This document shows, piece after piece, positions 16,017 through 33,155 of a stretch of 64,000 nucleotides of DNA. The notes beneath the pieces are model-generated. The model ran no database searches, had not been told where the DNA came from, and saw only the letters and a program-made list of their open reading frames with translations. The stretch is from Cyanobacteria bacterium P01_A01_bin.123. Lineage in GTDB: Bacteria; Cyanobacteriota; Cyanobacteriia; Phormidesmidales; Phormidesmidaceae. Position 1 is the first letter of the stretch. Every line of letters starts with the position of its first letter. The stretch lies in the NCBI GenBank assembly GCA_039815185.1, contig JBCBZT010000027.1:43336-107335 (forward strand), given 5' to 3'. The position numbers were made by a program, and so were the translations under genes.

Positions 16017-16214
16017 GATGTTCTCCACGACCGACTAACTATGATTAGATTGAATCTGTCTGCCTAGTATCCCCAACGGGCCAAGCATTCAACGCGATCA
16101 CCTTGGACTGTTTGCAGAAATCGCAACTATGCAGGGGTATGAGACTACCCAAACTATGCAAAGACATAAGGTTACTCAGGACTCATAAAGGTGATTCTGA
16201 GACGATCCCTAAAA

Positions 16215-16265
16215 TGCCAGGAGGCGGACTTGAATCGCCGACACGAGGATTTTCAGTCCCCCTGC
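16215..16265 (-). pseudogene. 3' fragment of tRNA-Phe(GAA), probable island attachment site
   Basis: Minus strand GGACTGAAAATCCTCGTGTCGGCGATTCAAGTCCGCCTCCTGGCA gives a GAA anticodon arm, T arm and 3' acceptor strand. The D arm and 5' acceptor strand are absent. Confidence 0.85.
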
Positions 16266-17020: not shown

Positions 17021-17200
17021 ATGGATACGAGCGGGCTCTGTTGCAAAAACAGGGTATCGATCGTTATCAAAGACGAGCAGCGCGGCCCTGACTTTCGGTG
17101 GTGCAACATTCCCCAACTCAAAGCGATCGCGTCGCTGTACCGAGTGCCAAAGTACAACCGCCTGCGTAAGGCCGAACTGGTGGCAGCACTGAGCGGGTGA
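17021..17200 (+). CDS. 59-aa protein with a Rho-N/HeH-like nucleic-acid-binding domain (not in the ORF track)
   Basis: MDTSGLCCKNRVSIVIKDEQRGPDFRWCNIPQLKAIASLYRVPKYNRLRKAELVAALSG; LK.IA....P.Y..LRKAELV..L matches the Rho N-terminal pattern. Confidence 0.6.
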   Translation: MDTSGLCCKNRVSIVIKDEQRGPDFRWCNIPQLKAIASLYRVPKYNRLRKAELVAALSG

Positions 17201-17235
17201 GTCTACCGGGGTGGGCAAGTGGCGCAGTTAAACCC

Positions 17236-17285
17236 CGTGACCGATGCCAGTACATCCAATCGTGACCGATACCAGTACATCTAAT
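17236..17285. repeat. 25-bp tandem duplication
   Basis: cgtgaccgatgccagtacatccaat followed by cgtgaccgataccagtacatctaat (2 mismatches). Confidence 0.85.
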
Positions 17286-17530
17286 AACGAGGACTAGAAA
17301 TGACTTCAACAACCCACAAGCAACCTACATAATCCAGGGGCAACCACAGCACTGAGCTGAGGACCATGACGGTTCAGAGTTACTGCGGCTCTACCACGTG
17401 CATCGAATTCGAGGGGCGTCTTATCAGTATCGATTAAGGGCCAAGCCGAAGCCTAACCCCATTTGAAAACGGCGATCGCGCCACGCGACCAAACGAACGC
17501 GATCGCCATCACGCACTAAGGATTCTAGCC

Positions 17531-18130
17531 ATGATTTCCATTCAACAGAAACCATCCCCTCTGCATCTAGCAAAGGTTGAGGTAGCTCAGTTACGGAGAG
17601 AGTTACAGCTAGTTAGGCTGAGAAACAAGGAATTAGAGGAACAAGCAGGGTTAGACCCCCTCACCCAAATTGCTAACCGGGGCACCTTCGATCGGTTTTT
17701 AAGTCGGGAATGGTCACGGGCAATGCGAGATGGTCACCCCATCTCGATATTGATGATCGACATTGACCATTTCAAACGGTTTAACGACACCCACGGTCAT
17801 ATCGAAGGCGATCGTTTGCTCAAGAGACTAGCTAAGGCGTGGTCGTCGGTACCAGAGCGGGCGTGTGACTTGGTAGCTCGGTATGGCGTTGAAGAGTTCG
17901 CAGTCATCCTCCCTGGGACAACTAGCCGGGGTGGCCGCAAAGTTGCCAGGGACATCCTGGCGGTTACAAGGCGCATCATTGACCCCATGGGCCAATCCCT
18001 CACCTGTTCGATTGGCGTGGCTGCGTGCGTACCCATTAAAGAGATTCAGCCAAAATCCCTCGTTAGCCTTGCAGACCAACGCTTGCACCGGGCAAAGGCA
18101 AAAGGGCGCGATCGCGTGTGGGCCAACTAA
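17531..18130 (+). CDS. GGDEF-domain protein with a degenerate active site (GVEEF)
   Basis: Coiled coil, then DPLTQIANR, DIDHFKRFNDTHGH, RACD I-site, RYGVEEF, AK.KGRDR. Confidence 0.9.
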   Translation: MISIQQKPSPLHLAKVEVAQLRRELQLVRLRNKELEEQAGLDPLTQIANRGTFDRFLSREWSRAMRDGHPISILMIDIDHFKRFNDTHGHIEGDRLLKRLAKAWSSVPERACDLVARYGVEEFAVILPGTTSRGGRKVARDILAVTRRIIDPMGQSLTCSIGVAACVPIKEIQPKSLVSLADQRLHRAKAKGRDRVWAN

Positions 18131-18152
18131 ACAATTCCCTGGGTGCCTCTAT
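18106..18152 (+). repeat. 47-bp direct repeat, copy 1
   Basis: gcgcgatcgcgtgtgggccaactaaacaattccctgggtgcctctat, identical to 18942-18988. Confidence 0.95.
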
Positions 18153-18336
18153 TTAATAGTTATTAATAGTTAGCCCTCCAATTCTCGGTTAGGGCAGTGC
18201 ATCAAGTTTTCCTTTTCGATTTTGAACTCATTGGGTCGCAAAGTTATCTCTAGCACGCAGTTTGCCTCAAGTCGAAAGTAGTCAGAATTCATATTTGTTC
18301 CTGATAGTATGTACAGGCGTGCATACTATAATTGAG

Positions 18337-18603
18337 ATGGTCTACCAATGGAATAGTGATAAGGCAGTCGCTAACCTGCGTAAACATGGTGTTGACTTCG
18401 CTGATGCGGTGTCAGTTTTCTCAGATGACCTGGCAATTACCATTCCAGATGAGCGATTTGATGAAGAGCGGTTTGTCACTATCGGTCTTGATGTTTTTGG
18501 CAGGGCCTTGGTGGTTGTCTACACGCTACGTGGGGACGAAATTCGAGTCATCTCAGCTCGCAAAGCAACTCGACAAGAGCGCCGACAATACGAGGAGGGG
18601 TAG
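18337..18603 (+). CDS. BrnT-family toxin
   Basis: YQWNSDKAVANLRKHGVDFADA...EERFVTIG...IRVISARKAT..ERRQY. Likely start MVYQW. Confidence 0.88.
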   Translation: MVYQWNSDKAVANLRKHGVDFADAVSVFSDDLAITIPDERFDEERFVTIGLDVFGRALVVVYTLRGDEIRVISARKATRQERRQYEEG

Positions 18604-18605
18604 TT

Positions 18606-18863
18606 ATGGAAGCAGAATATGATTTCAGCCAAGGCAGGCGAGGAGCAATCGATTCAACGCCATCAGGTAAAACCCGCATCACTATTCGGCTAGATGATGA
18701 AGTTCTGGCGTGGTTTCGTGAGCAAGTTCATATTGCTGGCGGAGGAAACTACCAGACCTTGATCAATGAAGCCCTGCGCCAGCATATTCAGGCAAGTCGT
18801 GAACCCCTTGAGGAAATCCTACGAAAAGTTGTTCGTGAAGAGCTTGAACGTATTGAAAGGTAA
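18606..18863 (+). CDS. BrnA-family antitoxin
   Basis: EYDFSQG...ITIRLDDEVLAWFR...YQTLINEALR; directly follows the toxin. Confidence 0.88.
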   Translation: MEAEYDFSQGRRGAIDSTPSGKTRITIRLDDEVLAWFREQVHIAGGGNYQTLINEALRQHIQASREPLEEILRKVVREELERIER

Positions 18864-18941
18864 GGCGTTTGCTAAGGGCTATGAAATGTCAAGCGTTTAG
18901 CGTGACGCGACAGCTAGATAGTCGAGTTGCCATCTTTGTGA

Positions 18942-18988
18942 GCGCGATCGCGTGTGGGCCAACTAAACAATTCCCTGGGTGCCTCTAT
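18942..18988 (+). repeat. 47-bp direct repeat, copy 2
   Basis: Identical to 18106-18152. Confidence 0.95.
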
Positions 18989-19203
18989 CGTTCCGAAAAT
19001 CAATCACTAAGGTAAACGCTATGACGATTCTGAGTAGACGCGGCGACATGCACCTTAACCGCAAGATGGGGAGAAATGTCTCAATTTCTAGAACTCCCAT
19101 CTCATTGGGATGACGCTTGTTATGAAAAGACCACCAGCAAGGATGATAAACAAACCGTAAGCAATTCCAGGCGTGCAACGGCGGGATGATTATACTGATC
19201 TCG

Positions 19204-19347
19204 TCTACCTAATCACCCATATAGGGGTATTAGGCTGACGTATTTCCACCTAAACGCCCAAATCAGGGAATTAGGCTGAAAAGTTTCTACCTAAACACCT
19301 ATTTAAGGGAGTTATATGGGACAGTTCTATCTAATTAATAGTTAGGC
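19204..19347 (+). repeat. Degenerate ~41-bp tandem array ending in TAATA|GTTAGGC (attI-like leader)
   Basis: TCYAYCTAA starts at 19204, 19245, 19286 and 19326. The first two units have CCTAA...TTAGG inverted ends. Confidence 0.65.
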
Positions 19348-19417
19348 GCACGCCCTGCGATACTTTTTGGCTGAGTTAGAATGCTGATAATTATCCGTTT
19401 TAGTCTGATAATTTCAA

Positions 19418-20713
19418 ATGTCTAGAGAAAACTCCAAAAATACAGAAAAGTCTGACTCTGAATGCAAACGTGAAATCTTTAATGAGCTTGATGCTACCAT
19501 TGGTATTCAAAGTATCTGGGGAGTTTATGGATATACCTATGGTGGGAATGACATGGTCAGCAGTCACTTTGAAGCATTAGGTATTTTTTTGAATAGGGTT
19601 CTAGATAGTGGGTTAGCGACTTCAAAGTTTCATCGTGAAGAAATAGATGTACATTCTATCCTTAACACCGAGCAAGAGATTAGAAATATAATTCAAGCGA
19701 ATAAGAAGGCAGATGAGCTATTTCTTGCTGCCCTGAGGCAGGAAATGTTATTTGTCGATCACATATATGTGCCAGATATAGAATACTCGACTTTACTCAA
19801 TGAAGGGATAGAAGAACTTTCTACCCTCCATGATGAGGGAATTATAAAATTAGCAACACTTGGGGATGTCGATCAATCAGAATACTCTTTGCAGGATGAT
19901 GGAATACTAAGAGTAACCAGCACTTTCTCTATGGACGGCCATGAATTATATGAGGCTGTCCAAAAAGCTGATGATGAGATGATGGATTATCAGTATTGCT
20001 TGATGATGCTCCTTTTAGGTCTGAGCGAAGAAAATATTAGAACAGAATATAGAAATGAAAGGAAAAAGGAAATATTCCGAAACATGAAATCCTGGGGTAT
20101 TCCAAGAGCAACCAAAGAGTATCTCAATGCTGGCAGTCTTATGCATGATCTTCAAACAAGATTATGGTGCCAACTAGCGTTTGATCGATATGGAGTAATG
20201 CCTATTCCGCTCGTCAATACATTTTCACAATATGACAAGCTCCCTAAAAAGATTAAAGGTAAACAGGTAGGATATCAAGATGTTGTTCACTTAGTCTTAA
20301 AACAGATTCCAATGCCTAGTCTTGAGATGCCTCTTGATGAGTTCATTGACTTTCGAAGATCTGCTGAGCATAGAAATAGTTTTTATTCCTTGAAAAGATG
20401 GATGCGAAAAATCGGGAAAAGTAACATTACTCTTATTGAGTTGGAAGAAGAGTTAGAATACCTAATTTCAGAATATGAATCTTTTATGAGGCTTCAGAAA
20501 CTAAAAATAGAAACTGGAGCTTTTCAGACGATCCTTACGACCGGAGGAGATATCGTTGAGAATATAATTAAGCTCAACTTTAGTAAAGCAGCAAAAGGCG
20601 CCTTTGATCTGAAAAGAAGAAAAATTGCACTAATGGAAGTAGAAAAAGAAGCGCCGGGAAGAGAAGTTTCCTACATTGTTAATTCTCAGGAAAAGTTAAT
20701 AGATGACTTGTGA
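19418..20713 (+). CDS. AT-rich hypothetical protein carried as a gene cassette
   Basis: 431-aa ORF with foreign composition, bounded by GTTAGGC (19341) and an attC (20795). No confident family. Confidence 0.8.
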   Translation: MSRENSKNTEKSDSECKREIFNELDATIGIQSIWGVYGYTYGGNDMVSSHFEALGIFLNRVLDSGLATSKFHREEIDVHSILNTEQEIRNIIQANKKADELFLAALRQEMLFVDHIYVPDIEYSTLLNEGIEELSTLHDEGIIKLATLGDVDQSEYSLQDDGILRVTSTFSMDGHELYEAVQKADDEMMDYQYCLMMLLLGLSEENIRTEYRNERKKEIFRNMKSWGIPRATKEYLNAGSLMHDLQTRLWCQLAFDRYGVMPIPLVNTFSQYDKLPKKIKGKQVGYQDVVHLVLKQIPMPSLEMPLDEFIDFRRSAEHRNSFYSLKRWMRKIGKSNITLIELEEELEYLISEYESFMRLQKLKIETGAFQTILTTGGDIVENIIKLNFSKAAKGAFDLKRRKIALMEVEKEAPGREVSYIVNSQEKLIDDL

Positions 20714-20794
20714 AAATGAATGAGTGAAACCTTTTGGAAATGCGATTATGCTGATCTTTTAGGTGTGAATTTTTGAGGTTTAGCTTGGTAGCGT

Positions 20795-20879
20795 GCCTAA
20801 CATAACGCAGGAGCAGACGGAATTTATGATCTAGACATTGATGCAAAAATATCGACCGCCGCTCAGCTCTACGTTAGGC
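20795..20879 (+). mobile_element. Integron attC-like recombination site
   Basis: R'' GCCTAAC and R' GTTAGGC, 85 bp, with inner partial inverted repeat gcaggagc..gacgg / ccgccgctcagc. Confidence 0.75.
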
Positions 20880-20914
20880 TGCTTGCTACCTAGGACTTTA
20901 ACTCTTTAGCTACT

Positions 20915-21574
20915 ATGATTACCTCTCCTAGCATTTTCATAAGTTATGCAAAAGAAGATGCAATTGTGGCTAGACGGTTGGCTAATACTCTAAGCACTAA
21001 AAATGTGAAATTGTGGATTGATACGGATAGCCTTCTTCCAGGAGAAGAGTGGGACAGAGAAATTCGAAAAGCAATACGTAGTAGTGATTTTTTTATTGCA
21101 CTCCTTTCTAAAAAATCCGTTAATAAGAAAGGCTATGTACAAAAAGAAATTCGAGAGGCAATTGAAGTGCGCAACGAACTACCTGAAGGGAAACGTTTTA
21201 TCCTCCCTGCACGTGTTGATGATTGCCAAACTCCCTTTGAAATCCTCAAAAAATTGCATTGGGTAGATTTATTTCCTGAATGGGATGTGGGGGTAAATAA
21301 ACTACTTTTAGCCATTGGTGTGCAGCAGAGTATTAACGACACAGTAACTAGTAATGCTGCAAAATGTGAGAAGCAGAAGCGGCCAAAGCTAAAAGTTAAT
21401 CTTTCTAACGATTCAGTTGATTTGCTTAAGAAACTTCATGATGAATCTGGGATTTCACAAGCAGAAGCTGTCAGGAGATCGCTTGCATTGCTAGAATTTT
21501 CATCCTCGAAATCAACATCAGACTTGGAGATAGTGGATGATGATGGGGAAATATCCCGAATTATTTTTATTTAA
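20915..21574 (+). CDS. TIR domain protein with C-terminal ribbon-helix-helix (CopG-like) domain
   Basis: IFISYAKED, WID..SLLPGEEW, FIALLS..SV, YVQKEI (catalytic-position Glu). C-terminal LKVNLSNDSVDLLKKL..ESGISQAEAVRRSLALL. Confidence 0.85.
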   Translation: MITSPSIFISYAKEDAIVARRLANTLSTKNVKLWIDTDSLLPGEEWDREIRKAIRSSDFFIALLSKKSVNKKGYVQKEIREAIEVRNELPEGKRFILPARVDDCQTPFEILKKLHWVDLFPEWDVGVNKLLLAIGVQQSINDTVTSNAAKCEKQKRPKLKVNLSNDSVDLLKKLHDESGISQAEAVRRSLALLEFSSSKSTSDLEIVDDDGEISRIIFI

Positions 21575-21788
21575 TTATTTAGCTATATCTTTATATATGC
21601 AAGGAGTATTATACATTAGCTAAACCTCGATTCCAAATGCAAATAATTTGCATGTAACGCCAAAGTTTGAGTAGTACATTTTTATTTCGGTTTTTTCTTG
21701 CTTCATTTCTAACTTATATTGCAAGGGATGTTCAGTTCACACATTATCTATTTTAATTTTAGATGACCTTTCGCGCTCTTGAGCAAAT

Positions 21789-22535
21789 ATGCCAGAAGTT
21801 TTTATCAGCTATGCTAGCGAGGATAGATCAAAGTGTGAGCAGCTCTATCGTGATCTGAGAGCTGAAGGATACGACGTATGGCTCGATTCCCAAGACCTTG
21901 TGGCTGGCTCAAATTGGTCAATTGAGATAAGAAAAGCCATTCGAGGAGCTCAATACTTTATTATTGTGCTCTCCTCAAATAGTGTTTCGAAGCGAGGGTA
22001 TGTTCAAAAGGAAATAAGAGAAGCCTTAGATGTCTTAGACGAGTTTCCTGAATCCGAAACTTTTATTGTTCCTATTAGACTGGAGCCATGTAATGAAGGA
22101 TTTGAGCGCCTTAAAACAATTCAGCGAGTTGATATGTTCCCAAACTGGGATGATGGAGTGGCTCGTATAATCCGAGCATTGAAGAGAAGAAATCTCAACC
22201 CTGGTGAGCTAGTCAATCTTGTACAAAATACTAATCCAACTGCGAGGTTAAGGGGAGATACAATTCGCCTTCCACATAGAGAGACAAATCCAGTAGCTTT
22301 CGTAGCATTCAGTCGAGATTTTATTTGCGAGATGGCCAGAAAGCTTATAGAAAAAGATATAAATGGATTCTTTGAGATTATTAAAAACGAATATGGGACA
22401 CTGGTTCCTGCAGGTACTCTTGTTGAGGTTATTGAATGGCAAGACTATAAGAATTTCAAGATTGTGAGAATAAAATGCCTTGAAGGTGAACTCATTGATA
22501 AAATTCTCTGGACAGTTTCATTGTGTATCCCGTAA
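21789..22535 (+). CDS. TIR domain protein with an uncharacterised C-terminal domain
   Basis: VFISYASED, WLDSQDLVAGSNW, IIVLSSNSV, YVQKEI, VPIRLEPC. Confidence 0.87.
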   Translation: MPEVFISYASEDRSKCEQLYRDLRAEGYDVWLDSQDLVAGSNWSIEIRKAIRGAQYFIIVLSSNSVSKRGYVQKEIREALDVLDEFPESETFIVPIRLEPCNEGFERLKTIQRVDMFPNWDDGVARIIRALKRRNLNPGELVNLVQNTNPTARLRGDTIRLPHRETNPVAFVAFSRDFICEMARKLIEKDINGFFEIIKNEYGTLVPAGTLVEVIEWQDYKNFKIVRIKCLEGELIDKILWTVSLCIP

Positions 22536-22652
22536 TATAATCGATCATCGCTGTAGTGCAGTCACTTATCGTCGTAGGCTAGGTTGACTTAAGGGAGTAC
22601 TTTGCATTTTCAAATAATCAGGATTGTAATCATTGTGGTCGTGTTGAGCTAA

Positions 22653-22737
22653 GCCTAACTATCCGGTTGCACCCAACTGTAGTAAGAGCATCAGATAGCT
22701 TGAGAAATTCTGCAGCGGGTGAACCAAATCGTTAGAC
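22653..22737 (+). mobile_element. Integron attC-like recombination site
   Basis: R'' GCCTAAC, L'' GGTTGCACCC, L' GGGTGAACC (complementary except one extra G), R' GTTAGAC; 85 bp. Confidence 0.85.
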
Positions 22738-22825
22738 CTCATGGATTAAGGCTTTAGCTATAAATACTGCTGCGGTTAGACACTCTGCTGTAGAGTCTGA
22801 GGTGTGGGTTATTTATGAATCGTTG

Positions 22826-23788
22826 ATGGCTTCTCTGCAAATCTTCCTCGATGATCTCTACGACCGCTATCGCGACCTCGATGAGGGCCATGTTGCCAGC
22901 TACATCCCAGAATTAGCTAAAGCTGACCCCAACTGGTTTGGCATCAGCATTATTACCACCGATGGCGAAGTCTTTGAAGTCGGGGATGTAGCGCAAAATT
23001 TCACCATCCAATCGATTTCTAAAGTCTTTGCCTATGGCTTAGCCCTTGAAGACCATGGTCAAGATGAACTGTTTGAGAAAGTCGGCGTAGAACCCACGGG
23101 CGACCCCTTTAACTCCCTCATTCGCCTGGACGAAGACTCTAAGCGGCCCTACAACCCGATGATCAATGCCGGGGCGATCGCGACCAGCAGCCTAATCAAC
23201 GGTACCGATCCCACCGACAAACTCAACCGCCTACTGGCCATGTTTGAACGTTACCTGGGCCATGAGGTTTTCATCGACATGTCTACATTTATGTCTGAAT
23301 ACTCTACGGGGCATCGCAATCGGGCCATGGCTCACTTGATGCTCAACTTCGGCATGATCGATCAAAATATCGACGCTGCCCTCACCCTCTATTTTCAGCA
23401 GTGTGCCGCCATGGTGACCTGTCACGATTTGGCGGTGATGGCCGCTACCCTGGCCAATCAAGGCAAGCAGCCTATCACGCACAAACAGGCTGTGAATCCT
23501 GACTATGTGCGCGATATTCTCAGCATCATGTACACCTGCGGCATGTATAACCGAGCGGGAGAGTGGGCTTACCGCGTCGGCATCCCCGCCAAAAGCGGCG
23601 TCTCCGGCGGCATCATCGCCGTTGTTCCCGGTAAAGCCGGGATCGCCACCTTCTCTCCCCCGATTGACGCCAACGGCAACAGCGTCAGGGGCCTCAAAGT
23701 GTTTGAAGAACTCTCCCGCAAATACGGCCTCCACCTATTCGATCTCTCCATGGGCCGCTGCGTCTTCACCGAAGCCCTCAAATCATAG
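22826..23788 (+). CDS. glsA: Glutaminase A
   Basis: [21 protein letters not shown] (SxxK), [27 protein letters not shown]. Confidence 0.93.
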
Positions 23789-23819
23789 GTGATTCCTAAA
23801 GCCTGAGTCCCCTCCTGAA

Positions 23820-23973
23820 TTTTAGATTTTGGATTTTAGATTTTGGGTTGTCAAAGATCCGCGCCTACCTCCCCATCTCCCCATCTCCCTACCTCCCCAT
23901 CTGTATCACACGCTAATACCCATCCTCCCCAACCTGATTACAATCAAACCCATTCCCCAATCCAAAATCCAAA
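23820..23973. repeat. STRR-like short tandem repeats
   Basis: ATTTTAG/ATTTTGG heptamers, CTCCCCAT octamers and inverted CCAAAAT heptamers. Confidence 0.7.
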
Positions 23974-25239
23974 ATGGTCTCCCAGCTCACTAGCCCTGCC
24001 GGAACACCTGCTTTATCTAGCTGGCGCATCAATCGCGATCGCCTCTTGAGTTGCCTCGATCAGCTCGCTCAAATCGGTGCCATTGACGGCGGCGGTGTTT
24101 GTCGACTCGCCCTGAGTGACGAAGACAAAGCCGGACGTGACTGGGTCGTGAGCTGGATGAAAGATCTGGGGCTAGCCATCACCATTGATCAACTGGGCAA
24201 CGTTGTCGCTACCCGACCTGGCCTAGAAGATGGCCCCCCAGTCATGACGGGATCACATATCGATACAGTGGCCACTGGGGGCCGCTATGACGGCAACCTA
24301 GGCGTACTAGCCGGGTTAGAGGTGATCGAAATCCTCAATGAGAACAACATCCAGACCCGCCATCCGGTAGCCGTAGCGTTTTTCACCAATGAAGAAGGGG
24401 CCAGGTTTCACCCGGATATGATGGGCAGTTGGGTGTTTCGTGGGGACTTTCCGGTGGAGGAGGCACTAGCAACCGTTGGCATCGACGGCACCACCGTGGG
24501 CGAAAACCTAGAACGCATTGGCTATGCCGGAACCGTGCCCTGCGGCAGTCAGCCCGTCAAAGCGTTTGTCGAGTTGCACGTTGAACAAGGCCCTGTACTA
24601 GAGCTGGAAGGCATTCAAATTGGTGCGGTGACTGGAGTTCAAGGCATGTCTTGGAAGGAGTATACCGTCAAAGGAGTATCGAACCATGCGGGGACTACGC
24701 CGATGCATTTGCGTAGAGATGCGGGGTACGGTTCTAGCGCGATCGCAGTGGCCGCCCGCAACTTAGCCCTAGAGATGGGTGGTAATCAGGTGGCCACCAT
24801 CGGATCCATTCAGCTCAAACCCAGTCTAGTCAACGTGATTGCTAAGGAAGCGCGGCTTACGGTCGATCTACGCAACACCGACGAAGCCCTATTACAGCAG
24901 GCTGAAGCGCAGATGAGTGCCAAAATCGACGCGATCGCAGCGGCGGAAAATCTTGAGATTAACAGTCGTTCCCTGGCCCGTTTTGAACCCGTTGAGTTTG
25001 ACTCAAAGCTTGTGAATCAGGTGGCGCAAACGGCCCAGGAACTTGGATTGTCAGTCAAGCGGATGCCCAGCGGTGCAGGTCATGATGCCGGATTGATTGC
25101 TCCCATGGCGCCTACGGCAATGATTTTTGTCCCCAGCGTCAACGGCATTAGCCACAACGTCAAGGAATACACGGCCCCCGAAGATTTAGAAAATGGGGCA
25201 AATGTGCTGCTACAGGTGTTATTACAACTCGCAATGTAG
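23974..25239 (+). CDS. M20 Zn-dependent amidohydrolase (allantoate amidohydrolase / N-carbamoylase family)
   Basis: GSHIDTV, GRYDG, NEEG, ELHVEQG, NHAGTTPM, SGAGHDA, GISH. Confidence 0.9.
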   Translation: MVSQLTSPAGTPALSSWRINRDRLLSCLDQLAQIGAIDGGGVCRLALSDEDKAGRDWVVSWMKDLGLAITIDQLGNVVATRPGLEDGPPVMTGSHIDTVATGGRYDGNLGVLAGLEVIEILNENNIQTRHPVAVAFFTNEEGARFHPDMMGSWVFRGDFPVEEALATVGIDGTTVGENLERIGYAGTVPCGSQPVKAFVELHVEQGPVLELEGIQIGAVTGVQGMSWKEYTVKGVSNHAGTTPMHLRRDAGYGSSAIAVAARNLALEMGGNQVATIGSIQLKPSLVNVIAKEARLTVDLRNTDEALLQQAEAQMSAKIDAIAAAENLEINSRSLARFEPVEFDSKLVNQVAQTAQELGLSVKRMPSGAGHDAGLIAPMAPTAMIFVPSVNGISHNVKEYTAPEDLENGANVLLQVLLQLAM

Positions 25240-25255
25240 CCACCATCCCTCATCC

Positions 25256-26728
25256 ATGACAGAGATTCACTCCCCGCCCCAACTGCCCAAAGACTTTGCA
25301 CCCGAAGATTTTTGGGCAATGCCACCCCTGCTGCCTGATGCAGAAGAGCGGCTGCATCACCTCGCCCAAGCTGTCTACGCTGACCTGGAAGTGTTGAGCT
25401 ATCCCAGTCGAACTTGGGACTACAGTCGCAACCCTGACATCCTCGAAGTGGCGATTCTAGGGGCCGGACACGGCGGTAAGTCTGCGGCGTTTGGCCTCCG
25501 ACGGCATGGGATTAGCAATGTTCGCATCTTTGACCGCCGCCCTGCGGGCAAAGAAGGCCCGTGGTACACCTTTGCCCGCAACGCCACCCTGAGGACCCCA
25601 AAGGAAGTGACTGGCGGACTGGACTGGGAGATCGCCAATCTGAATTTTCGCCGCTGGTGTGCCGCTCGCCACGGGGATGACTATTGGCAACGCATTCACT
25701 ACATTCCCCGATTGCTTTGGGCCACCTATTTGGACTGGTACGGTCAAGTGCTGGACTTACCGATCCAAAACGATACGGACATTCAAGACATTACTTGGAA
25801 CACAGCGGAACGGTGTTTTGAGTTGCAGGCCTACTATCAGGGCAAGCCAGAACGCTACAAAACCCGCTTCATTATTTTTGCTACGGGGATGGAGTGTGCG
25901 GGCGGTAAAAACGTACCAGATATTGTGCGCGATCGCCTGCCTGCCCACTGCTACCATCACACGATGGACGACCTCGATTTCCCCAGCTTTGCCGATCAGC
26001 GGGTGATGATCATTGGCGGTGGGGCGAGCGCTTTCGACAATGCCATTTTGCTGTTGAAGGCCGGGGCACAATCGGTGGACATTGCCATCCGCCGCCCCAA
26101 GCTGCCTAACCTCAACCGTATTCGCTGGAGTGAGTGGAACGGCTACCATCGCCACTTCATTGACCTGCCGGATGCCATGAAATGGACTTACAGCTTGGCA
26201 GAATTTCGCCTGGGGCAACTGCCGCCGCCCCACACCTATTACCAGGCTATCAGCCACCCCCGCTTAACCCTCTACACCAACGCACCCGTCAAACAGCTTG
26301 ACTATAAACAGGGTGAAATTGTCGGGCTGTATGGCGATCGCACTCTCCACCACGACACCCTGATCTGCGGCACTGGCTTCATCACCAACCTCGATCACCA
26401 AAACGAACTGGGGACTCTAGCACCCCAGATTGCTCGCTGGCGCGATCGCTTTAACCCACTCCCTGGTGATGAACAGGCCGAAATGGCTAACTATCCCTAC
26501 CTCAACACAACCCTGGGGTTTACCCCCAAGTCTCCCGACCATGGGTATCTGAGCCGCTGCTACTACCTCTCGTCAGGGGCTGCCCTGCTCAGCGGCTTCC
26601 GCGCTAATCTCTCCGGCTTACAGTTTGCCCTACCCCGAATCGCCTATGACATTGGACGACAGCTCTTTATTGAGCACCAAGACGAGATTCGAGCCGCCTT
26701 TGACGCCTACGATGTCAAAGAGTATTGA
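25256..26728 (+). CDS. FAD/NAD(P)-dependent oxidoreductase, HpyO (urate hydroxylase)-like
   Basis: ILGAGHGG FAD motif, GPWYTFAR..TLRTPK, FATG, IGGGASAFDNA, ICGTGF. Likely start MTEIH at 25256. Confidence 0.7.
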   Translation: MTEIHSPPQLPKDFAPEDFWAMPPLLPDAEERLHHLAQAVYADLEVLSYPSRTWDYSRNPDILEVAILGAGHGGKSAAFGLRRHGISNVRIFDRRPAGKEGPWYTFARNATLRTPKEVTGGLDWEIANLNFRRWCAARHGDDYWQRIHYIPRLLWATYLDWYGQVLDLPIQNDTDIQDITWNTAERCFELQAYYQGKPERYKTRFIIFATGMECAGGKNVPDIVRDRLPAHCYHHTMDDLDFPSFADQRVMIIGGGASAFDNAILLLKAGAQSVDIAIRRPKLPNLNRIRWSEWNGYHRHFIDLPDAMKWTYSLAEFRLGQLPPPHTYYQAISHPRLTLYTNAPVKQLDYKQGEIVGLYGDRTLHHDTLICGTGFITNLDHQNELGTLAPQIARWRDRFNPLPGDEQAEMANYPYLNTTLGFTPKSPDHGYLSRCYYLSSGAALLSGFRANLSGLQFALPRIAYDIGRQLFIEHQDEIRAAFDAYDVKEY

Positions 26729-26733
26729 ATGCT

Positions 26734-27816
26734 ATGAAAATTGACGTTTTCAAGATCCCCCAAAGTGGCCCTGATGATTTGACCGGGTTGGTCGATCTGA
26801 TTGAACAGCAAAAGCTAGCGCCTCAAAATATTGTCGCCATCATGGGTAAAACCGAAGGTAATGGTTGCGTCAATGATTTCACTCGGGGGTTTGCCGTTGC
26901 AACGCTGAAGGGATACTTACAATCTCGCATCGGTGAAGTCTTAACTAGCCAGATTGTATTTGTCATGTCAGGCGGCACTGAGGGAGTGTTGAGTCCCCAT
27001 TTAACGGTCTTCACACGACAACTGGAAGACTTGGCAGGGCCGACTCATCTAGGTTTAGCATTGGGGATTTGCCACACCCGAGATTTCTCTGTAGACGAAA
27101 TCGGCACCCTGACGATGGTGCAAGTGGTGGCGAATGGGGTGAAGACTGCGATCGCCACCGCTGGCCTAACGCCCGAGAATGTTCACTTTGTGCAAATCAA
27201 ATGTCCCCTAATTACTGCCGCCCGTAATTTTCAAAGTGAGGTAGTTACTCAAAATAAAACAGCTATCACCCAGGACAGCTACAAATCTATGGCCTATTCC
27301 CGAGGGGCTTCTGCCCTGGGAGTAGCGTTAGCGCTAGGGGAACTCCAACCGGATCAGCTCACCGCTGACGATATCTGCTCAAATTACACCCTGTATTCAT
27401 CTGTCGCTTCGACCTCTGCGGGCGTTGAACTTCAAAACTGCGAGATTCTAGTGTTGGGCAATACGCCTCATTCCCACAGCAACTATCGCATCGGTCATAG
27501 CGTGATGGAACATGCCCTGGATACTGCGGCGGTGCAGCAAGCGATCGCGAGTGCCCAAGGTTCCCTCAATCCATCCCGCATTATTAATGTCTTTGCCAAA
27601 GCGGAAGCTGATCCCACGGGTCAGGTGCTGGGCTGTCGCCATACCATGCTGGATGACTCCGATATTAATCACACTCGCATGGCGAGAGCGGTTGTCGGGG
27701 CAATGGTTGCGTCTGTCGTACAAGACCCGATGATTTATGTGTCAGGGGGTAGTGAACATCAGGGCCCGGCGGGTGGCGGCCCCATCGCAGTGATTAGCCG
27801 TTGCGCTATGGGGTAA
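26734..27816 (+). CDS. atzD: Cyanuric acid hydrolase / ring-opening amidohydrolase (AtzD/barbiturase family)
   Basis: GKTEGNGCVNDFTRG, MSGGTEG..SPH, QIKCPL, SRGASALGVA, STSAG, YVSGGSEHQGP.GGGP. QIKCP/SRG is the cyanuric-acid-hydrolase-type pattern. Confidence 0.85.
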   Translation: MKIDVFKIPQSGPDDLTGLVDLIEQQKLAPQNIVAIMGKTEGNGCVNDFTRGFAVATLKGYLQSRIGEVLTSQIVFVMSGGTEGVLSPHLTVFTRQLEDLAGPTHLGLALGICHTRDFSVDEIGTLTMVQVVANGVKTAIATAGLTPENVHFVQIKCPLITAARNFQSEVVTQNKTAITQDSYKSMAYSRGASALGVALALGELQPDQLTADDICSNYTLYSSVASTSAGVELQNCEILVLGNTPHSHSNYRIGHSVMEHALDTAAVQQAIASAQGSLNPSRIINVFAKAEADPTGQVLGCRHTMLDDSDINHTRMARAVVGAMVASVVQDPMIYVSGGSEHQGPAGGGPIAVISRCAMG

Positions 27817-28043
27817 CCCACACATGTTGATACACCGGGCTTTTGACTGGGGTTGAGGGATAGCGATCGCGTTAATGCCACACTTCACCAGGTCTTGATA
27901 AACTCGGCAACTTTTTGGCACCTTTTTCATACAGTGGGGTCTATTGTTTATATGGCTACTTTCTTTAAGCCAAATTAGGCAATCTATTAGGGACATTCCC
28001 GGTTACGATCTGACACAGCTAGCGATATGCACTAAACAAATCC

Positions 28044-29693
28044 ATGGTTGAGATGGCCCCCCGCTTCCCTGGCCCAAACCCCTTCCAGTTTGATTTCCTT
28101 TCTAATCGTCCGAAACGCGATCGCATTTTGGCAGCTATCGACGTCGGCACCAATTCTATTCACATGGTGGTGGCTAAAATTCAGCCCGCGATCCCCGCGT
28201 TTTCGATTATCGATAAAGAAAAGGATACGGTACGCCTGGGCAACTTTAGCGCCAGCGATAGCCTGACCGAAGATGCCATGGAACGGGCGATCGCAGCCCT
28301 GAAACGCTGCCAAAAAATTGCCCATAGCCTCGATGCCGAAGATATTGTCGCCGTGGCCACCAGCGCCGTTCGCGAAGCCAGAAACGGCAATGAGTTTCTC
28401 GAACGGGTTGAACGAGAAACTGGCTTAGCGATCAATCTAATCTCGGGTACAGAAGAAGCTCGTCGGATTTATTTGGGTGTGCTTTCTGGCATGGAACTGC
28501 ACGGGCAACCCCACACCATTATTGACATTGGTGGCGGTTCCACCGAGCTGATTTTAGGCACCGGACAACCCCATCGCTTCCTCAGCAGCACCAAGGTTGG
28601 GGCAGTGAGGCTAACGGCTCAGTTCATCACGACCAATCCTGTGAGCGACGAAGAGTTCACCTACTTAAAAGCCTATGTGCGGGGTAGGTTAGAGCGTACC
28701 GTAGACGAACTCAAAACTCATGTGAAACCGGGTGAATCCCTGAACTTGATTGGCACCTCAGGTACGATCGAATGTTTGGCAGAGCTAGACGCCATCGATC
28801 GCCTGGGCTTAGTGCCAGATCCCCTCAATGGCTATGAAATGCAGTTGGAAGATTTGCGCACCCTGGTAGAGCGTTTGCGCAAGTCGAGCTACAGTGAGCG
28901 TCTAGCAATGCCCGGTATGTTGGCCCGTCGGGCTGAAATCATTGTCGCCGGGGCGGTGATTTTGCAAGAAGCCATGGAACTGCTAGGGATAGACCAACTC
29001 ACCATCTGCGAACGCGCCCTGCGGGAAGGGGTCGTGGTGAACTGGATGTTGACCCATGGGTTAATTGAAGACCGGATGCAGTTTCAAGAGTCCGTGCGGC
29101 AACGCAGTGTCATGCGGACGGCCCAAAAATATCAAGTGGATATCCCCCACAGCGATCGCACGGCTCGCTTCGCCCTGGCCCTATTTGATCAAACCCATGA
29201 CCATCTGCACGAGTGGGGTGCCCAAGAGCGACAGTTACTTTGGGCCGCTGCCATGCTCCACAATAGTGGCCATTATGTCAGCCACACGTCCCATCACAAA
29301 CATTCTTACTATTTGATTCGTAATGGTGAGCTGTTGGGCTATACCGAAGCTGAAATAGAAACGATTGCCAATATCGCCCGCTATCACCGCAAAAGTGCCC
29401 CTAAGAAAAAGCACGACACCTATCGCAACTTACCCAGCAAGTATCACCGCCAACTGGTCGATCAACTGAGTGCGGTTTTACGGTTGGCAGCCGCCCTCGA
29501 TCGGCGACAAATCGGCGCGATCGCAGGGCTAAGCTGTCACTACGATGCAGAAAACCGCAAACTTTTGCTCAATCTGACCCCTGCCAATACCCAAGACGAC
29601 TGCTCGATTGAATTGTGGAACCTCGACTACAAAAAAGATTGCTTTGAAGCCGAGTTTGACGTCAAACTTCTGGTCAATCTAGTTCGGAGTTGA
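28044..29693 (+). CDS. ppx: Exopolyphosphatase Ppx/GppA with HD domain
   Basis: AAIDVGTNSIH, ATSAVREA, EEARRIYLG, DIGGGSTE, ALREG, RYHRKS. Confidence 0.93.
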   Translation: MVEMAPRFPGPNPFQFDFLSNRPKRDRILAAIDVGTNSIHMVVAKIQPAIPAFSIIDKEKDTVRLGNFSASDSLTEDAMERAIAALKRCQKIAHSLDAEDIVAVATSAVREARNGNEFLERVERETGLAINLISGTEEARRIYLGVLSGMELHGQPHTIIDIGGGSTELILGTGQPHRFLSSTKVGAVRLTAQFITTNPVSDEEFTYLKAYVRGRLERTVDELKTHVKPGESLNLIGTSGTIECLAELDAIDRLGLVPDPLNGYEMQLEDLRTLVERLRKSSYSERLAMPGMLARRAEIIVAGAVILQEAMELLGIDQLTICERALREGVVVNWMLTHGLIEDRMQFQESVRQRSVMRTAQKYQVDIPHSDRTARFALALFDQTHDHLHEWGAQERQLLWAAAMLHNSGHYVSHTSHHKHSYYLIRNGELLGYTEAEIETIANIARYHRKSAPKKKHDTYRNLPSKYHRQLVDQLSAVLRLAAALDRRQIGAIAGLSCHYDAENRKLLLNLTPANTQDDCSIELWNLDYKKDCFEAEFDVKLLVNLVRS

Positions 29694-29957
29694 GGGAAAT
29701 TCTGAGCGAATGGAAGGCTTACTTGTCTCACTAACCAAGTTAGTCTCATATTATTTAGGCTCAGATCCAGATCATCACACTATTTGGGGTGTTATACGGC
29801 ATTTGAGTCGTCTAATCACTGGATTAGTGGGTATAGGCAGGTTTGGACTCGGATAAGATCCTGTTTAGGGGTGTTACACAGCATTTTTGCAGCCTATCTC
29901 CCCTCCATGGGGTTGATATACAACAAGCGATCTGCCTAATCACCCTTATTTAGAAGC

Positions 29958-30131
29958 TTAGCTGGATTAGAGGGGATAAATGCAGATCAAATAATAAGTA
30001 GGAAGGTCCAATTAAATATAAGAAAGCGTAGGTTGTGGTTGAGGAACAAAACCCAACTATTGCCTCTGAGCAATCACTAATAATTTGGGGGTTTAGCCGG
30101 ATTAGAGGAGATAAATGCAGATCAAATAATA
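29958..30131 (+). repeat. 39-bp direct repeat pair (29958-29996 and 30093-30131) ending in TAATA
   Basis: ttagctggattagaggggataaatgcagatcaaataata versus ttagccggattagaggagataaatgcagatcaaataata. Confidence 0.9.
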
Positions 30132-30147
30132 GTTTGCAGATGGATCT

Positions 30148-30582
30148 ATGCCTAAGGACAACCGCATCATAATCCACCATCAGGACGGAACCTGTCCGTT
30201 TAATGTCGCCAACATCAAACTCAGCGTCAAGGACGGCAAACTCGATCTGGAAATCGAGACGCACGAAAACGAAGACTGCGTGCTCGGCTTTTTGCCGTCG
30301 CCGACGCTATATGTTGAAAATACTGAAGTCACGGCAAGAACGCTCGCCGAGCTAACCCGCGAAGAATTGGATGTGCCAATTGGCTGGAACACCGATGACA
30401 ACATCTTCCGAATCTACATCGGACAACATCAAGCTTTAGATCACAACAAGGTGACAATTCGCCGTCGGAATCCGACCGAGATTGAAATCGACTGGAAATC
30501 AGACGCCGTCGATTTCAATTACTACGACGAAAGAGCCAGGCGCAACGTTATTGAGGCGCATTGCGTATACATCGTCGAATGA
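30148..30582 (+). CDS. Hypothetical acidic protein carried as a solo gene cassette
   Basis: 144-aa ORF between GTTTGCAGATG (30132) and CATCTGCATAAC (30601). Confidence 0.7.
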   Translation: MPKDNRIIIHHQDGTCPFNVANIKLSVKDGKLDLEIETHENEDCVLGFLPSPTLYVENTEVTARTLAELTREELDVPIGWNTDDNIFRIYIGQHQALDHNKVTIRRRNPTEIEIDWKSDAVDFNYYDERARRNVIEAHCVYIVE

Positions 30583-30605
30583 CACTGAGCGTTGCCGCAG
30601 CATCT

Positions 30606-30691
30606 GCATAACAAATCGATGCACCGGAACGGATAAGGTTGGTTCGCTCGGTACAATTTGTTATCTGTCCAGTGGTCTCTAATCGTTAAAC
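30606..30691 (+). mobile_element. Integron attC-like site
   Basis: R'' GCATAAC, gatgcaccgga / tccagtggtc partial inverted repeat, R' GTTAAAC; 86 bp. Confidence 0.65.
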
Positions 30692-30749: not shown

Positions 30750-31411
30750 CTATTTGAGAACTGTTATCAAGGGTTTGTGGTCTGAGCCTCCAGTCATACC
30801 AGTCCAGGTTTTCAGAGACTTAAATCCCCGGGTCATAATGTGGTCGATTGGAATTTTGATATAGCGGGTCTTCAGGGTCTGATTAAAGTACCAGGTGGCC
30901 CAAATCCACTGGCCTCGACCAGTATTTTGTAACTGGCTTTGCCGTTCAAACCGTTCAAAATAGGGCGACCATGGCGCGGTGTTAAAGTCTCCGAGGACGA
31001 TTAATTTGCCATCCAACTTGCGACTGGTACGGATCAGGGTATCAAGTTGGTGATTGCGGATATGGAAAAAATTCCGCCGAATCGGGACGGGTGGGTGAAA
31101 ATCCAAAGATTGTAGGTCATGACTCGGATACCCTCAGAGGGTGTGCCCAGGTTCGGTAGCCCCACCCAGCTAAGAATTGGTGCCCAACATAATACTGATA
31201 GCACCGTTGCCAGAACCAATCGAACACGTTGCTTGCGTAGAATAGGCAACAGCAACACTAACAAGAATCCAAGCAGTGCTATGCTGCTGAAATAGGGTAA
31301 AAGCTCAAGCGAAACAGAAAAGATCCAACGATATTTCGGATAGGGACTATAGTAAAGCAGCACGATTAGTGTGCTGAGCAGTAATGTGATGTTAGAGATT
31401 AATCGCAGCAT
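30750..31411 (-). pseudogene. Membrane-anchored endonuclease/exonuclease/phosphatase-family gene, frameshifted and shortened
   Basis: N-terminal TM part ending IRVMTYNLW (31034-31411) and C-terminal HPP, LGDFNTAPWS, PIDHI, GSDHKP (30750-31106) lie in different frames; the middle of the domain appears deleted. Confidence 0.75.
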
Positions 31412-31659: not shown

Positions 31660-33155
31660 CTATCCATTAGACAGAAAAAGCTAGGATGCTTTCAGGGGGT
31701 AGCTTTTGGAGGCGAGGTGTGCTCCTTCAAGCAAGTGATGGAGCACACCTAAGCCGCGCCACAGCGTTTTCAAACCCGGTTCACCATCACCCTTACGGGC
31801 TAAGAATCCTCCCAATTGGGCAATCCAGCGGACTGCTTGACGGATAGTAGGTGGCTTTTTGGAGCGGTTCTTGGGTTCAAACTTGCGCCGCAACAACCGC
31901 CATTCCCCAGGTTGTAAAATCATCTCACACGAGTCATTGGGAGCCAGTCTGGCATGGTAGGTCATCCACATCAGCCGCCAAGCCACAATCGAGTAAGTGG
32001 CCAGCGATTGAGCAAACGCTGGGCCGTTTCAAGTTGCAACTGCTCAATCCGACAGCCGCTCTTCAGGGTGAAATGAAATCGCTCAATCAACCACCGAAGA
32101 CTATACCAGCGAACACATTGACAGGCTTGTTCGAACGTCTCAATCGGTAATGTGGTCAGCAACAACCAGCGGATGGGTTCGCCCCCATCGACTGGGGCTT
32201 CTTCACTCACCAGCAAAGCATTCATGGGTACTGGTTGGGCCGTCTTGGGATGTTGACCATTGCGGGGCACGGCAATGGTCACGCTGATGGCGCGGATGCT
32301 CAAGGTGGCCTGACGAGCAGGGCGCTTCGGATTCCTTTGCACCTCAAGGCTCAGGTGTCCCAGGATGGGCGCTTGCTCAAGGGTGGGAATCAAATAGCCC
32401 AATTCACCGTCAACTTTGCGATTGTGTTCAGCCCGAATCAACAGCTCGCTGGAAACCCGACGAGGCTGAACAAATAGGTCATAGATGTCGGCTTCGCGGT
32501 CACCCACATGGATCAGGCAAACCGCATCATCGACACCAACCTCAGCCGCCGTCAACGTATCGAGCCATCGTTGACTTTCTTTTTCACGGGTTGGCTTCTG
32601 GCGACGCTGTCCTCGTTTGCCAGCCCGTTCTTTGCGACTCCAGGTGTATTGATGCAACAAACCTAACGGTTCACCCTCACCACTGACAGCCAAACAGCTA
32701 TGCACTTTGATGCCCTGTTGATTCGTCTGACAGAAAAAGCCTAAGCCCGTTGTCTGCTTTAAGCTGCTGAAATCTAAATCGGTGGTGTCCTGGATGGCCA
32801 ACACCACGCTTTGGTCGCTTATCCGCTTGAGGACACTGGGGCGATGACTGTCCAAAATCTGACCGGCTCGAATCCGTTTGTTTGACCAGAAGCGATAAAC
32901 GCTTTGACTCTCGGAGGCAGCTTGAGTCGCTTGTGGGACACTTTCGTTGGGATGCTCACTCAACACCCGCAATAGCTCACGCAGTCGCTTGCCATGGCGA
33001 AAGTCACGAAATGGGGCACTCCTGATTTCTTAGTTAGCCCAATCGCGCATTAGAGGTTCCTCTCAAAAGCTATATATGGACTTAGTAAGATCCCACAGTT
33101 GATGCCTGAAATCTATATCTCGTAATACTTCTATGTATTTGTGCCTAATGGATAG
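31660..33155 (-). mobile_element. IS4-family (IS50/Tn5-like) insertion sequence with 10-bp target duplication
   Basis: Terminal inverted repeats CTATCCATTAGACAGAAA / TTTGTGCCTAATGGATAG. CTCCCAATGT is duplicated at 31650-31659 and 33156-33165. Confidence 0.92.
31681..33050 (-). pseudogene. IS4-family transposase, inactivated
   Basis: IQDTT, GDREAD, Y..RWLIERFH..LKSGC, LGGFLARKGDGEPG. In-frame TAA at codon 7 (MRDWAN*) and a frameshift near 32005. Confidence 0.9.

Follow-up and report, generated by a model that had tools for sequence, protein, structure and literature searches.

Integron cassettes at attI-like platforms without an adjoining intact integrase gene: three junctions at two loci of a cyanobacterial genome

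Integron cassettes that lack an adjoining integron integrase gene (intI) have been described as attC site clusters that have no integron integrase (CALINs) or, where one attC is present, as single attC sites lacking integron integrases (SALINs). As set out in two accounts of these elements (PMC4889954; bioRxiv 10.1101/2022.09.11.507474), CALINs are defined by attC alone, the attI site being unknown for most integrons and not searchable; loss of intI is one of their listed origins, and a nearby intI pseudogene is missing from 95% of them. Because attI is usually not recognisable, the origin and activity of integrase-less cassette clusters have stayed open (PMC4889954). The subject of this analysis is a stretch of 64,000 nucleotides (the window) from contig JBCBZT010000027.1 of Cyanobacteria bacterium P01_A01_bin.123 (assembly GCA_039815185.1), in which a preliminary description had noted three cassette insertions at a shared TAATA|GTT junction and proposed that an integrase acting in trans used this recurring motif as an attI-like target at several chromosomal sites. 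The three junctions are read here as attI cores at two loci, belonging to a set of about 19 attI platforms (docks) that were likely left by loss of intI and are likely still loaded by an integrase encoded elsewhere, a reading given a probability of roughly two in three. In what follows the genome of the window is G000, other G-numbers denote related genomes, C-numbers contigs, and L-numbers dock or intI loci; X1 to X4 are four sequencing runs, for which the evidence comes from contigs (31-letter) only.

The crossover G of the TAATAG|TT junctions stands at 18169, 19341 and 30132, and a fourth copy lies 10 bp before the first, inside a 10-bp tandem repeat (18153-18172). Three attC-like sites occupy 20795-20879 (85 bp), 22653-22737 (85 bp) and 30606-30691 (86 bp). 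All three fold on the bottom strand through R''-L''/L'-R' arms and score 47.0, 58.9 and 34.6 bits, respectively, on that strand under a covariance model built from 27 other attC-like sites of G000 with no window site used, in which 9 of 15 pairs display compensatory changes. The next-best scores in the window are 18 bits (the opposite strand of one attC) and 13.8 bits. Covariance was chosen for attC counts because a plain pattern scan was too noisy and a position-weight scan overlapped with its null below about 30 bits, and both scans were dropped; genome-wide scoring, which covered 150 of 1,317 candidates, found at least 47 attC sites in G000 at E<0.01. The start of each cassette pairs with the R'' end of that same cassette, although cassette A has 2 nt inserted in its start and cassette C lacks an A there. 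The positions of junctions and attC sites given in the preliminary description are confirmed, as is the end complementarity apart from these small indels, and the identification of the units as integron cassettes is borne out by the attC scores, the complementarity and the presence of the same first cassette in relatives. The view that an attC closes each unit holds for cassettes A, B and C; the first unit has no attC inside the window and is whole in relatives.

The junction motif does not by itself define these sites. TAATA|GTT occurs 148 times in the genome. Eight copies lie within 3 kb upstream of an attC, against about 0.9 expected, and four of these fall in the window; nine shuffled spacers used as a control gave one to three attC-proximal copies each. 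The remaining 140 copies have no attC within 3 kb, and the 8-mer on its own is not specific. TAATA is thus enriched at first-cassette junctions, as had been supposed, but as a by-product of attI.

The conserved unit is an attI of about 160 bp that consists of 41-bp palindromic repeats (the ladder), an L box, a short spacer and G|TT. Ladder and L box were detected at E<0.01 upstream of all 47 cyanobacterial intI loci with a flank of at least 300 nt, and upstream of five of nine intI loci whose taxon is a different one or is not named. TCTAAT serves as L box in 73 of the 118 distinct platforms, and no spacer is more frequent than TAATA (32); at the 93 sites with a five-nucleotide spacer, the crossover reads G, T and T in 90, 90 and 91, respectively, while the C68 dock and the second C24 dock have 4-nt spacers. 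Searched with a profile of the platform, G000 yields 19 distinct copies, while null matches stay at E 0.48 or above; the profile matches 57 of 60 family genomes, mostly many times each, in counts that take in both strands of the palindromic ladder. As regards a Pc promoter for the array, scanning the platform gave no sigma-70-type site, and a conserved TATACT at 19192 may be a -10 element. At 16030-16080 (minus strand), a short open reading frame (ORF) is preceded by a weak attI-core-like site (E 0.4-0.5) that consists of TCTAAT, a 4-nt spacer and G|TTAG, and no attC was found behind this site.

Docks are dispersed and mostly separated from intI. In G005, a closed genome, platforms occupy 13 distinct positions and 48 attC matches are spread around the chromosome, so that dispersal is not an assembly effect; three of its docks have a full-length intI, one of them with an internal stop. 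Two same-direction docks of that genome (G005:C1:1648934 and 1652810) stand 3.9 kb apart, in tandem like junctions 1 and 2. In G000, one of 15 scored docks has a full intI, five a remnant and nine none. Among 90 docks of relatives, sampled by best platform score from some 800 matches, the corresponding numbers are 3, 21 and 63, with three having too little flank. Many docks keep pieces of the intI leader or gene, and the remnants stop at many different positions, as independent deletions would give. The 72 integrase-less (orphan) docks fall into 55 flank groups, that is, at many unrelated loci, and several relatives contain clusters of docks within a single genome. A dock tree of 111 rows (one long row left out), which is rough because its rows are short and repeat-rich, rejects a single clade for 12 G000 platforms (approximately unbiased test, p-AU 1.2e-5); in this tree the dock of junction 2 clusters with an intact integron of G047 and a further two decayed docks, and not with the C36 integron of its own genome.

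Junctions 1 and 2 share one locus, so the window holds two loci and not three independent insertions. Locus 1 lies between a GGDEF gene (17531-18130, plus strand; PF00990, E 6.5e-41) and a glutaminase gene (22802-23788, plus; PF04960). Junction 2 is a full platform (19189-19347, plus; E 3.1e-41 with a profile that has this site in its training set), with three 41-bp palindromic units (19204-19326), the L box TCTAAT (19330-19335), the spacer TAATA and the crossover G at 19341. Upstream are a retained intI leader region (19128-19188), which is common to the C5 and C24 platforms and resembles the leaders of intact integrons, and a frameshifted intI remnant of 103 nt (19026-19128, minus; codons ~39-73). 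The latter was detected with an intI nucleotide profile (E 1.1e-21) and by tblastn (E 0.003), is 93% identical over 100 nt to a truncated intI on C24, and has the usual divergent orientation; the absence of intI from the window, as earlier reported, therefore holds for an intact gene only. The platform is followed by cassette A (19341-20872, plus; GC 37.5%; attC at its end), which encodes a 431-aa protein of no known family (19418-20713) with no Pfam or PADLOC match and with two relatives besides itself. Cassette B (20873-22730, plus; GC 38.5%) carries two TIR-domain genes (20915-21574 and 21789-22535; PF13676), for which the best PADLOC matches are TIR components of several defence systems, none of them complete. 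Neither A nor B was found as a whole cassette at other att junctions. Junction 2 is a decayed integron holding the 431-aa gene and the two-TIR cassette.

Junction 1 (18147-18172, plus) is a bare attI core with the 10-bp tandem duplication; it has no 41-bp repeats, is identical to the core of the C24:3979-4142 platform over 17 nt, and is the same in runs X3 and X4, which are two related samples from one study, about 98.5% alike. It is followed by a BrnT/BrnA toxin-antitoxin (TA) cassette (18169-18881, plus; BrnT 18337-18603, PF04365; BrnA 18606-18863, PF14384), whose attC is interrupted in the window just behind the fifth letter of R''. This cassette has a full attC in G044, G005, G010 and G069; the homologous cassettes of G044 and G005 match exactly 18169-18881 before continuing into it, and in X3 and X4 the sequence after 18881 goes on ACAACC, completing R''. 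The interruption is the end of an element of the IS21 family of insertion sequences (IS) (18882-18950), 89-90% identical to multi-copy IS ends in G036 that adjoin an IstB gene (PF01695, E 1.4e-46); its last 9 nt overlap the second copy of a 47-bp segment (X) at the octamer called highly iterated palindrome 1 (HIP1), and another IS copy in X2 continues with a near-HIP1 sequence at the fusion point. A group II intron end had been considered for the 65-bp piece after the TA cassette and was rejected, there being no Rfam match and the relatives showing an IS21-family end. Segment X spans 18106-18152 (plus; the 3' end of the GGDEF gene, starting at HIP1 and ending in CTCTAT) and recurs as a 100% direct repeat at 18942-18988 (plus); both joints of the second copy are found in contigs of X1, possibly the source reads. 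In X3 and X4, junction 1 and the TA cassette with its intact attC are kept, followed by 1,205 other bases that rejoin the window at 22762, the joint 18881-22762 being present in both and one X4 contig spanning the entire stretch from the GGDEF gene. Sister strains therefore differ in array content, 18882-22761 in the window facing 1,205 bases, and since they keep junction 1 but carry other sequence at junction 2, the two junctions probably represent alternative alleles of a single locus that became fused at HIP1. For the GGDEF flank, relatives gave matches to a tRNA fragment and short GGDEF matches but no corresponding locus, which is why no empty site was seen; at 19 glutaminase loci of relatives, no dock or attC lies within about 1.5 kb.

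Locus 2 lies behind a ppx/gppA gene (28044-29693, plus; PF02541). About 50 nt beyond that gene begins a long degenerate 41-bp repeat ladder with a first core (29740-29996, plus; E ~1e-7 with a profile without this site), whose half-sites are in 41-bp phase and which represents a second attI subtype, also present before intI in L371, L366, L314 and L063. A fragment of a short dispersed repeat, resembling a miniature inverted-repeat transposable element, interrupts this first core (29995-30057, plus; 94-98% matches on five other contigs). A second, partial platform end with a core follows at 30062-30134 (plus; a 49-bp repeat, 88%, aligning with cores of the subtype), and its crossover G at 30132 is junction 3. 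Cassette C (30132-30684, plus) encodes a 144-aa protein of no known family (30148-30582) and ends in the third attC; a distant, 50%-identical homologue in L296 is likewise the first cassette behind a ladder-type attI. The DNA of cassette C was not found in 200 other genomes but for one 28-nt match. A platform behind ppx is absent from 29 relatives, same-genus G001 among them, the only dock at 29 ppx loci being that of G005, upstream of the gene. The intI nucleotide profile found no trace of intI at junctions 1 and 3. For cassette C and the gene that follows it, cover in runs X3 and X4 is at background and no contig joins across, which does not establish that they are missing there.

The search for an integrase elsewhere in the genome, which the preliminary description had called for, yields one full-length intI in G000 (C36:697-1659; TIGR02249, 476 bits against a cut-off of 265). 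Its product retains the R, K, H-x-x-R, H and Y motifs. The gene is preceded by an attI of the same build, with palindromic units, L box, spacer and G|TT, and its closest relatives in named records include integrases of Leptolyngbya, Nodosilinea and Phormidesmis. Evidence for use of integrase-less docks comes from eight flank groups, in six of which such docks clearly share upstream DNA (76-94% over 150 nt); within these six the first 200 bases downstream differ in every pair, with identities (51-61%) at background level. The L158 group, and C26 as a member of its group, have no DNA in common beside the dock and were not taken as orthologous. Two G000 docks of different subtypes are followed by the same cassette start (C121:1-258 and C68:1-258; 98% across some 250 nt, 141 nt of them belonging to a contig-end repeat). 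The different first cassettes of orthologous integrase-less docks, the conserved cores and this shared cassette start point indirectly to loading in trans, and such loading by IntI is, from these comparisons, the most likely account. The notion of an integrase in trans at dispersed attI-like sites is thus retained, the docks being attI-like and dispersed and an intact IntI being encoded on C36, but not that of the 8-bp motif as its target.

Several observations weigh against this reading. No trace of intI remains at 63 of the 90 docks of relatives, so that decay of an integron is shown only for a minority, and of the 33 attC groups of G000, 21 are more than 4 kb away from any platform (11 of the 21 lie within 3.5 kb of a contig start, 10 do not). 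The C36 attI is of a subtype other than those of junctions 2 and 3, and cross-recognition of the latter by its integrase is therefore only assumed. Recombination was not observed, nor was an empty dock or an excised circle seen in the contigs of the four runs. Homologous replacement through the ladder, or an integrase that came in transiently, could equally leave shared docks with different cassettes. The sole difference between strains that was directly seen is the exchange of a block; its right end (22762) lies 31 nt past the last attC crossover, and it is therefore not an IntI product. A pure junction-2 allele, which would show an 18152-18989 joint, was not found in the runs, although contigs of 31 letters would not reveal that joint across a 47-bp repeat. 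The assembly of G000 is itself in 133 contigs, with 5.99% contamination.

These points bear on the alternatives to differing degrees. One holds that the docks are dead relics whose arrays change only by replacement of whole loci, homologous or HIP1-aided, with no integrase in trans. The block swap at locus 1 is what it predicts, and the repeat fragment within the first core of junction 3, like the IS within the attC of the TA cassette, fits abandoned sites; it is nonetheless considered unlikely, since cores are conserved at integrase-less docks (the L box and crossover counts given above) and orthologous orphan docks diverge right at G|TT, where their first cassettes differ. Somewhat less probable still is that the attI platform is a mobile integrase-free module, copied via HIP1 or other short matches to places that never had an intI. 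Here the argument turns on HIP1, which 15 of 72 orphan docks have no more than 100 nt upstream, compared with 27 of 260 background windows (10.4%; p ~0.006, kin not being independent), none of 16 intact docks and one of 27 remnant docks. At eight orphan docks (L101, which is G000 C26, L170, L181, L217, L225, L227, L232 and L242) it is fixed at 32-34 nt upstream; these docks have a leader in common and stand behind unrelated genes, among them ORFs resembling a transposase, a membrane subunit and transcription regulators. Junction 3, which follows ppx after about 50 nt, shows no intI trace and stands where G001 has no dock, would also suit such a module, as would the dock clusters inside single genomes. 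It would be expected to leave a common left boundary, terminal repeats or a target duplication, none of which was found; many docks keep intI pieces with varied breakpoints, and 57 of the 72 orphan docks have no near HIP1. In view of the HIP1 pattern, with eight docks at a fixed distance, some docks may have travelled without intI.

Very improbable, and largely refuted for junctions 2 and 3, is the third alternative, in which an integrase in trans inserted cassettes three independent times at TAATA|GTT as an attG-like secondary site in ordinary chromosome. It would explain why TAATA is the commonest spacer, why the 8-mer is enriched before attC and why junction 1 has no ladder. It conflicts with the many copies that have no attC nearby, with the presence of TAATA in only 32 of 118 platforms, with the whole platforms at junctions 2 and 3 and the intI remnant at the former, and with the fact that the core of junction 1 is that of another dock over 17 nt and shares the locus of junction 2.

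If the docks are indeed decayed integrons loaded in trans, their history may be pictured as follows. Integrons would have arrived repeatedly from other cyanobacteria, as suggested by the finding that the G000 docks are not one clade; intI would then have been deleted at varied breakpoints with attI kept, and IntI in trans would recombine attC hairpins, as they come in, at G|TT. The allele of locus 1 that has only a bare core (junction 1, with the TA cassette and a later IS21 hit) would have been joined to an allele with a full platform (junction 2) by a 9-10-nt HIP1 crossover on the left, which duplicated segment X, and by homology on the right. The host is rich in HIP1 (18,252 octamer matches, both strands counted), the function of which has been long debated (PMC4390886; 10.1101/2024.09.10.611283; PMC13756078), and the fusion at locus 1 provides a natural junction at this octamer. 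A broader and more tentative proposal, rated below even odds, is a distributed integron in which one or few integrases serve 10-20 long, laddered docks distributed around the chromosome, while docks and arrays spread and fuse integrase-free via HIP1 during transformation. Were this true, HIP1 would have a traceable natural role, and every dock would offer a first place in an array to a newly acquired cassette for defence or for a toxin-antitoxin pair. Carriage of an integrase is reported to be costly (PMC3510236); many docks would lift the single first-position limit of the classical integron with few integrase copies kept. In cyanobacteria, dock and integrase together might further be put to use as a tool for integration at multiple sites.

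Other features of the window were noted around the two loci. About 50 nt at 16210-16262 (minus) are conserved at 94-98% across most family genomes and resemble a tRNA 3' half, presumably of tRNA-Phe; no whole tRNA was found there by ARAGORN, and the piece may therefore mark the end of an integrated island. A 390-nt segment (17065-17455) that holds a 25-bp tandem repeat recurs at 96% on C16:90142-90531. Between 22802 and 27816, genes for glutaminase, an M20 amidohydrolase, a flavin monooxygenase-like protein and an AtzD/TrzD-family protein run in one direction and are possibly a nitrogen-scavenging cluster. Directly behind cassette C, a gene at 30750-31411 (minus) is split into two overlapping frames, with X3/X4 cover at background, and a transposase at 31681-32972 (minus) is split in two frames (Tnp_DNA_bind, DDE_Tnp_1).

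A multi-copy repeat-laddered attI in cyanobacteria was not described in the literature searched, mostly open papers, and the IntegronFinder supplementary tables may list these CALINs. By definition locus 1, with two attC, is a CALIN and locus 2, with one, a SALIN; neither is a complete integron, as no intact intI adjoins attI, and neither is an attG insertion, as L box and ladder are present. With the CALINs and SALINs as described they share one or few attC cassettes without a nearby intact intI and an IntI encoded elsewhere in the genome (PMC4889954; bioRxiv 10.1101/2022.09.11.507474). Unlike CALINs, they have a recognisable attI, in about 19 copies, and five of the 15 scored G000 docks have an intI remnant. 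Insertions at attG, in the account of bioRxiv 10.1101/2022.09.11.507474, likewise place dispersed cassettes in the chromosome with a G|WT crossover, through an integrase in trans that is only inferred here; the attG consensus is GWT only, in contrast to the present junctions, which have an L box 4-6 nt upstream and, in two of three cases, a ladder. The attI simple site upstream of the first cassette is present at junctions 2 and 3, and its core only at junction 1. The docks resemble attI1 and delta-attI in having an L box, a short spacer, an R box and upstream repeats, and delta-attI in the truncated copies seen at junction 1 and in the second copy at junction 3 (PMC12901181). According to the same source, attI1 is 65 bp with two direct repeats, whereas the docks measure at least about 160 bp, with palindromic units at a 41-bp period; a Vibrio paper states that most attI sites do not share such repeats (10.1101/2020.11.24.395434). 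Xanthomonas integrons, as they have been described (10.1101/2025.06.18.660453), share frequent loss of intI and additional CALINs at other loci that are said to be mobilisable in trans, although there the platform is ancestral at one locus (ilvD) and here the docks occupy many unrelated loci and do not form one clade per genome. The attI described here is long and conserved enough to map, and decay, orthology and cassette turnover can therefore be counted dock by dock.

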